Virus record (IMG/VR): IMGVR_UViG_2693429679_000007
Strand: one strand, 5' to 3'
DNA: 5,717 nucleotides
Source of the DNA: a virus
Taxonomy: Duplodnaviria > Heunggongvirae > Uroviricota > Caudoviricetes
Shown here one piece after another: positions 2,701-5,717 of the stretch; position 1 is the stretch's first letter, and each line of letters starts with the position of its first letter. The notes under the pieces are model-generated. The model was not told the DNA's origin. It worked only from the letters and a program-made list of their open reading frames with translations, and did no database searches. The position numbers and the translations under genes were made by a program.

Positions 2701-4212
<1,512 letters not shown>

Positions 4213-4213
4213 N

Positions 4214-4483
4214 ATGCCATCACCGCCGTGCAGCATGTGCCGGAAAAAGAAGCCATCGTGGATAACGGGGCGCACTTTGACGGCGACCAGAGCGGCACGG
4301 TGAATGGTGTCACGCCGCCAGCGGTGCAGCACCTGACTGCCGAAGTCACCGCAGACAGCGGGGAATATCAGGTGCTGGCGCGCTGGGACACGCCGAAGGT
4401 GGTGAAGGGCGTGAGCTTCCTGCTCCGTCTGACCGTAACAGCGGATGACGGCAGTGAGCGGCTGGTCAGCACGGCCCGGACGA
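4214..4483 (+). repeat. Exact 270-bp direct duplicate of 2425-2694 (allele 2 of J)
   Basis: Compared block by block with no mismatch seen; the shared reverse-strand ORF text ([39 protein letters not shown] in 1767..2543 and 3850..4941) reflects the same overlap. Confidence 0.8.
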
Positions 4484-5717
4484 CGGAAACCACTTACCGC
4501 TTCACACAACTGGCGCTGGGGAACTACAGGCTGACAGTCCGGGCAGTAAATGCGTGGGGGCAGCAGGGCGATCCGGCGTCGGTATCGTTCCGGATTGCCG
4601 CACCGGCAGCGCTGTCGCGGATTGAGCTGACGCCGGGCTATTTTCAGATAACCGCCACGCCGCATCTTGCGGTTTATGATCCGACGGTACAGTTTGAGTT
4701 CTGGTTCTCGGAAAAGCGGATTGCGGATATCAGGCAGGTTGAAACCACAGCACGCTATCTTGGCACGGCGCTGTACTGGATAGCCGCCAGTATCAATATC
4801 AAACCGGGCCATGATTATTACTTTTATATCCGCAGTGTGAACACCGTTGGCAAATCGGCATTCGTGGAGGCTGTTGGTCAGCCGAGTGATGATGCATCCG
4901 GTTATCTGGATTTTTTCAAAGGCGAGATAGGGAAAACCCATCTGGCTCAGGAGCTGTGGACGCAGATTGATAACGGTCAGCTTGCGCCTGACCTGGCTGA
5001 AATCAGGACGTCCATTACGGATGTCAGCAATGAAATCACGCAGACCGTCAATAAGAAACTGGAAGACCAGAGTGCGGCAATTCAGCAGATACAGAAGGTT
5101 CAGGTTGATACAAATAATAACCTGAACAGCATGTGGGCTGTGAAGCTGCAGCAGATGCAGGACGGACGCCTTTATATCGCGGGTATTGGTGCCGGTATTG
5201 AGAACACCCCTGACGGCATGCAGAGTCAGGTGCTGCTGGCGGCGGACAGGATTGCGATGGTTAATCCTGCGAATGGCAACACAAAACCGATGTTTGTTGG
5301 TCAGGGCGATCAGATATTCATGAACGACGTGTTCCTGAAACGCCTGACGGCCCCCACCATTACCAGCGGTGGAAATCCATCGGCATTTTCCCTGACTCCG
5401 GACGGAAAGCTGACCGCTAAAAATGCGGATATCAGTGGCAGTGTGAATGCGAACGCCGGGACGCTCAACAATGTCACGGTAAATGAAAACTGTACGATTA
5501 AGGGCATGCTGGAGGCGACTCAGGTCAGAGGTGACTTCGTTAAAGCTGTATCCAAATCATTTCCGAAACAGGCTGGTACGTGGGGTAACACGGAAACACC
5601 AAACGGGACGGTTACAGTCACCATAAGCGATGATCATAACTTTGACCGCCAGATTATTATTCCGCCCATTATTTTTAACGGTATAGCGTATGACGATCCG
5701 GGGAGCGGAAATAACCC
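4214..5717 (+). CDS. J: Protein J fragment, allele 2 (re-starts at the position equivalent to 2425 of the second fragment), frame +1, 3' end beyond the window; not in the ORF track because it runs off the window
   Basis: I translated frame +1 from 4213 to 5717 by hand and found no stop: (Y)[188 protein letters not shown]...[96 protein letters not shown]...[135 protein letters not shown]. Bases 4214-4483 are identical to 2425-2694. Confidence 0.88.

Follow-up and report, generated by a model that had tools for sequence, protein, structure and literature searches.

One helical repeat unit probably separates two exchangeable shaft and prism-top cassettes of lambda-type J proteins

Here, we describe a segment of the gene for the lambda-type tip attachment protein J (gpJ) that occurs in two sharply different versions within a 5,717-nucleotide (nt) stretch of viral DNA (IMG/VR record IMGVR_UViG_2693429679_000007; Caudoviricetes), referred to below as the window. 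The version in one copy, allele 1, spans positions 3686 to 3988 (101 codons), and that in the other, allele 2, spans positions 4924 to 5310 (129 codons), a difference of exactly 28 codons. In our view, it is very likely that these versions are anciently diverged cassettes made up of the helical shaft and the top of the β-prism of the central fiber, which differ by one repeat unit and are swapped by homologous recombination in the conserved flanks. A reading of the window that preceded this work (the original prediction) had proposed a diverged cassette exchanged between conserved flanks, and in this it is borne out: synonymous divergence, fixed differences, bimodal identities, and assortment with the receptor-binding domains (RBDs) all agree.

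Both copies could be assigned by their sequence to the lambda-type J proteins. With all Pfam matches exceeding the curated cutoffs, the domain order in both alleles is FNIII-A_GpJ, Phage-tail_3, Ig_J, Ig_J_second, and Phage_Tail_Tip, with Ig_GpJ_C added in allele 2. A phmmer search against the Protein Data Bank (PDB) returned lambda gpJ (8iyk_J; E = 0, 1261 bits) with near-identity over lambda residues 371 to 836, and the alignment was interrupted exactly at the extra segment of allele 2, the aligned parts being lambda residues 813 to 835 and 838 to 942. FVEAVG marks the end of Ig_J and Ig_J_second (FNIII-1 and FNIII-2 in lambda gpJ), so that the block does lie directly after the FN3-like domains, as had been proposed. 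The window holds J fragments alone, and the context within the tail gene cluster was read from identical or near-identical copies; on a Shigella sonnei contig (L215) it consists of the tape measure gene, M, L, K, I, J, Lom, and Stf and in phage 21 of I, J, and stf.

In lambda numbering, which was checked on J02459, residue 805 is the last of FVEAVG, and the block corresponds to K821 to N921. Cryo-electron microscopy of lambda gpJ has shown that residues 809 to 861, which follow FNIII-2, form the α-helical shaft (AHS), a bundle of three α-helices, and that beyond the AHS lie a β-sheet prism (the central straight fiber) and then a C-terminal Ig-like receptor-binding domain (PMC11101478). Upon LamB binding, the upper helix (residues 809 to 840) is remodeled, the lower helix (residues 841 to 861) turns into β-strands atop the prism, and with the FNIII clamp loosened, the tail opens (PMC11101478). 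By homology to this numbering, the block in the window can be assigned to the C-terminal 41 residues of the shaft and the first 60 residues of the prism.

The original prediction had noted a sharp divergence after the shared YLDFFKG motif and 28 more codons in allele 2, and translation and alignment confirmed both. Of the 101 aligned codons, 46 (45.5%) encode the same amino acid (aa); the helical part accounts for 12 of these (out of 41 positions) and the β-prism part for 34 (out of 60). When measured in 15-codon windows, nucleotide identity is mostly 0.91 to 1.00 upstream, falls to 0.36 to 0.69 in the block, and recovers to 0.82 to 0.98 from about position 3968 in allele 1 and 5290 in allele 2. 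The few anchors reported to survive within the block (MW-VK, DG--Y-AGIG, and PANGN--PMFV-QG-Q) and the shared sequence after it are present in the alignment, and the two quoted peptides are correct apart from one surplus trailing Q each, which comes from the next codons (5311 to 5313 and 3989 to 3991). The left boundary needs revision: divergence in allele 2 does not begin at 4924 but about 33 nt earlier, near 4891, at the start of the helical shaft, and across the population, fixed differences begin 30 to 60 nt past the first base of the FVEA codons.

The synonymous divergence (dS) between the window alleles is 0.15 upstream of the block, 2.28 (saturated) within it, and 0.32 downstream, and the ratio of nonsynonymous (dN) to synonymous divergence lies between 0.14 and 0.37 in all segments. 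These values bear on an explanation that we regard as highly improbable, namely, that the block is a fast-evolving, weakly constrained linker whose versions are points on a continuum of point mutations and small indels. Such a linker would fit with the block having the lowest identity of the gene and with the helical part being the most divergent, both in identity and in its dN/dS of 0.37. However, dS jumps 15-fold, while rapid protein evolution would raise dN only; this points to a different ancestry of the block, and a dN/dS below 0.4 throughout likewise speaks against weak constraint.

A comparison of 64 short with 79 long unique loci (143 in total), taken from public collections, gave the same picture. 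Fixed differences separating the short from the long forms numbered 105 inside the block and zero in both flanks (600 nt upstream and 420 nt downstream). The between-class divergence (dxy) of the block was 0.375 compared with a within-class diversity (π) of about 0.04, and in the flanks, dxy equaled π. For a weakly constrained linker, one would not expect that within-class π is lower in the block (0.038 to 0.042) than in the upstream flank (0.057 to 0.067) or that the main classes have exact lengths; among 187 loci, the segment from FVEA to QIFMN was 116 aa long in 87 and 144 aa long in 93, and no sequence intermediate between the short and long forms was found within these two classes. Identities to the allele 2 core were bimodal, with 65 phage records at 90% or more, none at 80 to 90%, and 96 at 60 to 80%, the corresponding numbers for complete Escherichia coli genome records being 3,584, 11, and 159. 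Diversity was sampled by locus scans and a representative search, the protein homologue search having listed near-identical sequences only (120 matches listed), and the loci were picked as best matches to the query sequences, so that frequencies are biased. The block can thus be read from these comparisons as a recombination cassette rather than a fast-evolving linker. The original prediction had also asked whether homologues would fall into two distinct versions; the versions are discrete, and no continuous intermediates between them appeared, but there are more than two of them, as at least two further one-unit classes and shafts with three, four, and six units exist (see below). We also observed that within the FNIII domains upstream of the block, patches of 82 to 93% nucleotide identity (Table 1) alternate with stretches of 98 to 100%, which looks like a finer mosaic of small recombination tracts.

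What distinguishes the two lengths appears to be a repeat unit. Tandem units matching the extra segment of allele 2 were found in two E. coli representatives and one phage: P0153 and PhiR49_2 have three each, and P0141 has six. PhiR49_2, whose complete genome record belongs to a phage-isolate collection, encodes a J protein of 1,232 aa. The units scored 46 to 78 against a shuffled 99th percentile of 35 to 37, and they are spaced by exactly 29 residues in P0153, P0141, PhiR49_2, and a further locus, L220. The consensus is IAEV-x9-EITQTV-x-KK-x3-QS-x2, with conserved hydrophobic residues at positions 1, 2, 4, 8, 15, 19, and 28. A scan of allele 1 revealed no copy of the unit. When the length of the shaft, taken from FNIII-2 to the start of the prism, was typed together with the unit count in 252 loci, shafts of 56 aa carried no unit (83 loci), those of 84 aa carried one (129 loci), those of 157 aa carried three (38 loci), and the single shaft of 193 aa (L220) carried four. 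An Edwardsiella locus with a 116-aa shaft gave a single marginal unit match, and one further rare locus has a shaft of 225 aa. Given the unit match and the length series, the 28-codon difference in the window can be interpreted as the presence or absence of one 29-residue unit of an extensible shaft.

Across the wider family, FNIII-2 and the start of the prism are separated by 56 aa in the lambda form, the minimum found, by 84 aa in the 21 form, and by up to 625 aa in Xenorhabdus-like homologues. Because it has the shortest shaft found, the lambda form suggests itself as a derived, shortened state. Two of the units in P0141 are identical in sequence, and this protein is encoded on a contig of 2,974 bp; the identity points to a recent tandem duplication or possibly to an assembly error. 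A group of E. coli J proteins of the 21 type (P0025, P0026, P0028, and P0052) have an in-frame deletion of 22 residues, AAIQQ[[22 protein letters not shown]]MQDG, flanked by QQ on both sides. The deletion corresponds to positions 5086 to 5151 of the window and removes the end of the shaft helix together with the first prism strand, and these proteins may come from defective prophage copies. A class with a spacing of 62 aa was at first a candidate anchoring artifact; this was rejected, as it represents this real deletion variant. In the literature, our coverage of which is incomplete, so that absence is not proven, we found neither the shaft dimorphism nor the 29-residue unit explicitly described. 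What is added here is the assignment of the block to the shaft and prism top, the proof of a cassette, and the 29-residue unit with its series of 0, 1, 3, 4, and 6 copies.

The extra stretch of allele 2 had been described as rich in Q, E, K, and I, with a heptad-like look suggesting a short coiled coil. As to composition, only the enrichment in I holds, since the 28 residues are richest in T, I, and N; a Q-rich stretch of 11 residues adjoins them on their downstream side. The helical character itself is supported, although not demonstrated, chiefly because the segment is homologous to a solved helical bundle and because the lower helix of allele 2 has a hydrophobic periodicity with a peak near 3.6 residues (P = 0.002 compared with shuffled sequences; P = 0.008 at 3.5 residues). 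A strict heptad, for which 28 residues would make four repeats, was rejected: the spectrum peaks at about 3.6, and relatives have a unit of 29 residues (29/8 = 3.6). Two AlphaFold2 monomer runs, one of 500 aa with 31 sequences and one of 157 aa with 28 sequences, had a mean predicted local distance difference test (pLDDT) score of 44 and 48, respectively. For P0002, helices were predicted at residues 161 to 171, 177 to 197, and 204 to 223 with pLDDT scores below 50, and for the short construct, a continuous helix of 45 residues was predicted with scores of 52 to 65. In both runs, short helices are followed by a break at NGQLAPD, then by a long helix, and finally by strands from WAVKLQQ on, so the extra segment is placed in a helix, albeit at low pLDDT scores. 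Use of these models was limited to secondary structure; fold matches from low-confidence models are meaningless.

It is quite unlikely, in our judgment, that the extra 28 residues are nonhelical in the virion and form added β-prism layers, a loop, or an insertion domain. The homologous lower helix of lambda can turn into β-strands after receptor binding, AlphaFold has been reported to give either state for related fibers (PMC12874032), and our own models are of low confidence, with the segment opening on the helix-breaking NGQLAPD. Nevertheless, both runs return a helix for LAEIRTS...NNNLN, the periodicity of about 3.6 residues is not the alternation of a strand, the unit has a constant length of 29 residues with hydrophobic positions 1, 4, 8, 15, and 19, and a signature motif of β-prisms is not enriched. 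This motif, SxSxxMxxLxS, marks the shaft of the F7 pyocin, which refolds into a β-prism upon target binding (PMC12874032). Searched for in either orientation, it matched the allele 2 shaft once compared with 0.26 expected matches (P = 0.23), and it was also not enriched in the multiunit shafts of E. coli (P = 0.24 to 0.60); it was enriched in the distant long shafts that served as positive controls (Edwardsiella, P = 0.014; P0219, P = 0.001). The idea that the extra unit is a fold-switching element of the F7 pyocin type was rejected on this ground.

With a helical extra unit as the preferred reading, a mechanism can be proposed. Cassettes would move between otherwise near-identical J genes via homologous recombination in the conserved left and right flanks. 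The block would constitute the link between the tail-closing FNIII domains and the receptor-binding tip, and one extra unit would lengthen the lower AHS helix from about 21 to 25 residues to about 45 to 50, adding roughly 4 nm of shaft at 1.5 Å per residue. Because the homologous lower helix of lambda (residues 841 to 861) refolds upon LamB binding, the cassette could by analogy set the reach of the fiber and the size of the refolding element rather than the choice of receptor, and a longer lower helix may alter the trigger or the energy released. In the classes with no unit and one unit, the helix and the prism top would stay together since they must fit each other: all 54 short shafts had one type of upper prism, and all 75 one-unit shafts had another. 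It is possible, but doubtful, that the gpJ shaft of E. coli lambdoid phages is more generally a helical array of 29-residue units, variable in copy number (0, 1, 3, 4, and 6) on fibers and RBDs that are nearly identical otherwise, that tunes the stand-off of the tail tip from the outer membrane or, through the quantity of metastable helix available for refolding on receptor binding, the threshold or energy of the trigger.

Whether the cassette could instead determine host range, being coadapted to and traveling with a particular RBD or receptor, was assessed with 155 unique C-terminal proteins. The 56-aa shaft was combined with six RBD types, the 84-aa shaft with four, and the 157-aa shaft with two (types 1 and 3). 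RBD types 0, 1, and 3 were each found with both short and one-unit shafts. The commonest type, to which the RBD of allele 2 belongs by clustering and which differs from the LamB-binding domain of lambda, was present in 31 unique proteins with the short shaft and in 31 with the one-unit shaft. A role in host range would account for the association between shaft class and RBD type, for the confinement of the LamB-type RBD to short shafts and of the 157-aa shaft to two RBD types, and it would suit the tight physical linkage of the cassette and the RBD (about 220 nt). We nevertheless consider it unlikely, as the commonest RBD type is shared equally by short and one-unit shafts and two other types occur with both, the 420 nt downstream, which reach into the RBD, are free of fixed differences between the short and long forms, and lambda contacts its receptor through four loops in the C-terminal Ig-like domain and not through the shaft (PMC11101478).

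Several observations nonetheless weigh against our reading of the block as a freely exchanged helical cassette. Shaft and RBD types are statistically associated in our sample and do not assort entirely at random; lambda-type RBDs, for example, accompanied short shafts exclusively, and most proteins with RBD type 1 had longer shafts. Two types of upper prism (in 20 and 4 unique proteins) were found joined to three-unit shafts, and the helix and the prism top are therefore separable by recombination. Both AlphaFold2 models are of low confidence and show a single chain of what functions as a trimer. The lack of enrichment of the fold-switch signature gives no support to the extra unit itself refolding, and an effect on reach or triggering is inferred.

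The window itself is not a continuous piece of DNA. Ns at positions 1782, 2695 to 2700, and 4213 divide it into four pieces, through all of which one plus-strand frame is open and each of which is part of a homologue of lambda J. Pieces 1 to 1781 and 2701 to 4212 (piece C) overlap by 750 nt at 100% identity and give allele 1; pieces 1783 to 2694 and 4214 to 5717 (piece D) overlap by 270 nt at 100% identity and give allele 2. Over its full length, piece D is 100% identical to a partial S. sonnei protein with 158 database members, and in one S. sonnei assembly (contig L215), the matching J gene is interrupted by a scaffold gap of 141 Ns (positions 5860 to 6000). From the four overlapping pieces and the N-interrupted S. 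sonnei gene, it follows that the two alleles are paralogous J genes of different lambdoid prophages, which were juxtaposed by a scaffolded draft assembly; the label allele, with its implication of one locus, is accordingly a misnomer that we retain for convenience.

This layout raises the further explanation that the divergent block is an artifact of a stitched, misassembled window, arising from chimeric reads or a collapsed repeat. The four N-joined fragments and the S. sonnei records with chimeric open reading frames (ORFs) and N gaps in J would be in keeping with it, but finished records (phi458, mEp460_ev081, and complete E. coli chromosomes) contain both versions intact and in frame, and the N joints are distant from the block, which is interior to pieces C and D. 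An artifactual block is thus improbable in the extreme; the block itself is no artifact, and the presence of two alleles in one window is a product of assembly.

The stitching has side effects on annotation. The frame reads through the single-N joints and creates artificial fused ORFs (e.g., 55 to 1806 and 2708 to 4303), and long antisense ORFs likewise span N joints, the longest crossing one; the antisense ORFs of the window had no credible Pfam match, and an Rfam scan of the window gave no matches. In P0001, a 608-aa S. sonnei "host specificity protein J," there are two copies of the shaft and prism region; this is a chimeric ORF from a stitched contig. Short-read assemblies of Shigella and E. 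coli are regularly broken by J paralogues. The features of the window are compiled in Table 1.

TABLE 1 Features of the two J copies in the 5,717-nt window (positions in nt)
Feature	Position(s)	Strand	Basis or remark
Allele 1 FNIII-2, conserved left flank	3380..3640	+	Pfam
Allele 1 α-helical shaft, 53 aa, lambda type, without repeat unit	3650..3808	+	Colinear with lambda 809-861
Allele 1 upper β-prism, 60 residues (MWGVK...AQGN)	3809..3988	+	Alignment to allele 2
Allele 1 lower β-prism, conserved right flank; piece C ends here	3989..4210	+	Sequence comparison
N joint between pieces C and D	4213, single N	.	Stitching point, not biology; other joints, 1782 and 2695-2700
Lower-identity patches in the upstream region of allele 2	4381-4425, 4486-4530, 4576-4620, 4681-4770		15-codon-window identity to allele 1
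Allele 2 FNIII-2 (Pfam Ig_J_second), conserved left flank, ends at FVEAVG	4618..4878	+	Pfam; 0 fixed differences in 600 nt upstream of FVEA
Allele 2 putative α-helical shaft, 81 aa (lambda 809-861 homologue plus 28 residues)	4888..5130	+	HMMER alignment to 8iyk_J, AlphaFold2 helices, periodicity
Allele 2 28 extra codons, between lambda E836 and L837 (junction of upper and lower AHS helices)	4972..5055	+	MAFFT, HMMER
Allele 2 single 29-residue shaft repeat unit	4993..5079	+	Matches tandem copies in P0153, PhiR49_2, and P0141
Allele 2 upper β-prism, 60 residues (MWAVK...GQGD), divergent right half of cassette	5131..5310	+	Homology to lambda 862-921; dS 2.11
Allele 2 lower β-prism (to VRG), conserved right flank	5311..5532	+	Identity back at 0.82-0.98; dS 0.32
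Allele 2 RBD, N-terminal part (Pfam Ig_GpJ_C), truncated by window end	5533..5715	+	Pfam, RBD clustering

Both forms, the lambda form of allele 1 and the phage 21 form of allele 2, are widespread. The allele 1 block with short flanks (3612 to 4008) is 96.2% identical at the nucleotide level to lambda (J02459) and 99.2% identical to phage mEp460_ev081, and its core (3686 to 3968) is found at 100% identity in complete E. coli chromosomes. The allele 2 block is 100% identical to that of phage phi458, 97% identical to that of phage 21, and 96.5% identical to that of cdtI; it is also present in Ayreon and many Stx2 phages and, again at 100% identity, in complete E. coli chromosomes. Among 5,426 complete E. 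coli genomes, the short, lambda-type block was detected in 2,649 (at most 6 copies per genome), the three-unit shaft in 725 (at most 5 copies), and the long, 21-type block in 3,731 (at most 12 copies), a count that also takes in other one-unit classes at about 70% identity. One such class, represented by BP-4795 (L210), YYZ-2008, and many Stx1a/Stx2a phages, shares about 69% of its nucleotides and 58% of its amino acids with the 21 type, and its FNIII-2 domain is likewise only 72% identical; another, PhiR12_2_star (L209), shares 76.7% and 71%, respectively. In one Stx1a phage, the first half of the block alone was matched (75.8%), which suggests recombination inside the cassette. Both cassettes are common in E. 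coli and Shigella prophages, and the pattern is one of ordinary, well-supported tail-fiber mosaicism.

Some records outside this range need to be read with care. The J loci L011 to L020, L023, and L025 to L027, which come from assemblies of Neobacillus, Kitasatospora, Leeuwenhoekiella, Pseudomonas, Shewanella, Desulfosporosinus, Oceanobacillus, Bradyrhizobium, and others, are 98.7 to 100% identical to lambda (mostly 99.7 to 100%), many over the full 6,397 bases compared, and represent contamination of these assemblies with lambda DNA. The record "Campylobacter phage CJLB-4" (MW057783.1; 48,361 bp) matches the allele 1 block with lambda's own statistics and may be lambda or mislabeled. A 1,350-bp contig of a Collinsella metagenome-assembled genome (L007) is 99% identical to allele 2 and is probably a misbinned E. 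coli prophage fragment.

When compared with the solved central fiber of lambda gpJ (PDB 8IYK, 8XCJ/8XCK, and 8K35; Ge & Wang 2024, PMC11101478), the allele 1 block has the same length and is colinear residue for residue. Allele 2 shares with lambda the FNIII-2 and lower-prism flanks and differs from it in the 28 residues between E836 and L837, in the 45.5% identity given above, and in having another RBD type. Phage 21 (OL657228, UMO75436.1), phi458, cdtI, Ayreon, and many Stx2 phages have the allele 2 cassette with one unit and no material difference in the block; the downstream receptor-binding domains vary among these phages. In position and architecture, the J shaft can be likened to that of the F-type pyocins (F2, PDB 25vf, PMC13455828; F7, PMC12874032), where a three-stranded helical shaft is likewise placed between two FNIII domains and a β-prism, and 25vf_A of the F2 pyocin has a weak similarity to allele 2 in the prism (E = 0.0013). 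However, the pyocin shaft is far longer than that of lambda, with 163 switching residues in F7 (PMC12874032), and the signature SxSxxMxxLxS, for which allele 2 shows no enrichment, is present in the F7 shaft. The F2 shaft is also a docking site for side fibers, whereas the side fibers of lambda form a collar on gpV/gpM; docking of side fibers on the J shaft was dropped as unlikely for this reason. The mosaicism of lambdoid tail fibers, as produced, e.g., when phages recombine homologously with prophages (PMC3945230), similarly features a diverged segment in conserved flanks, with neighbors that assort independently. Its classic examples are receptor-binding tips and side tail fiber genes; here, the exchanged part is the shaft and the prism top, which have no receptor contact.

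In summary, these data leave the current understanding unchanged in that both forms are present in the long-sequenced phages lambda and 21 and tail-fiber mosaicism is established. For annotation, cassettes present in many copies, with up to 12 of the long form per genome, explain the breaks of assemblies in J genes and the chimeric ORFs in draft genomes of E. coli and Shigella. For the biology of these phages, the block is a mechanical link, which in lambda keeps the tail shut and refolds once the receptor is bound; it probably has no part in the choice of receptor. Natural length variants on one scaffold, in whole steps of 29 residues, are a ready set for phage structural biologists and engineers. 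If the proposal of a shaft of variable unit number is true, the series would constitute a natural allelic series for how noncontractile tails turn receptor binding into opening.

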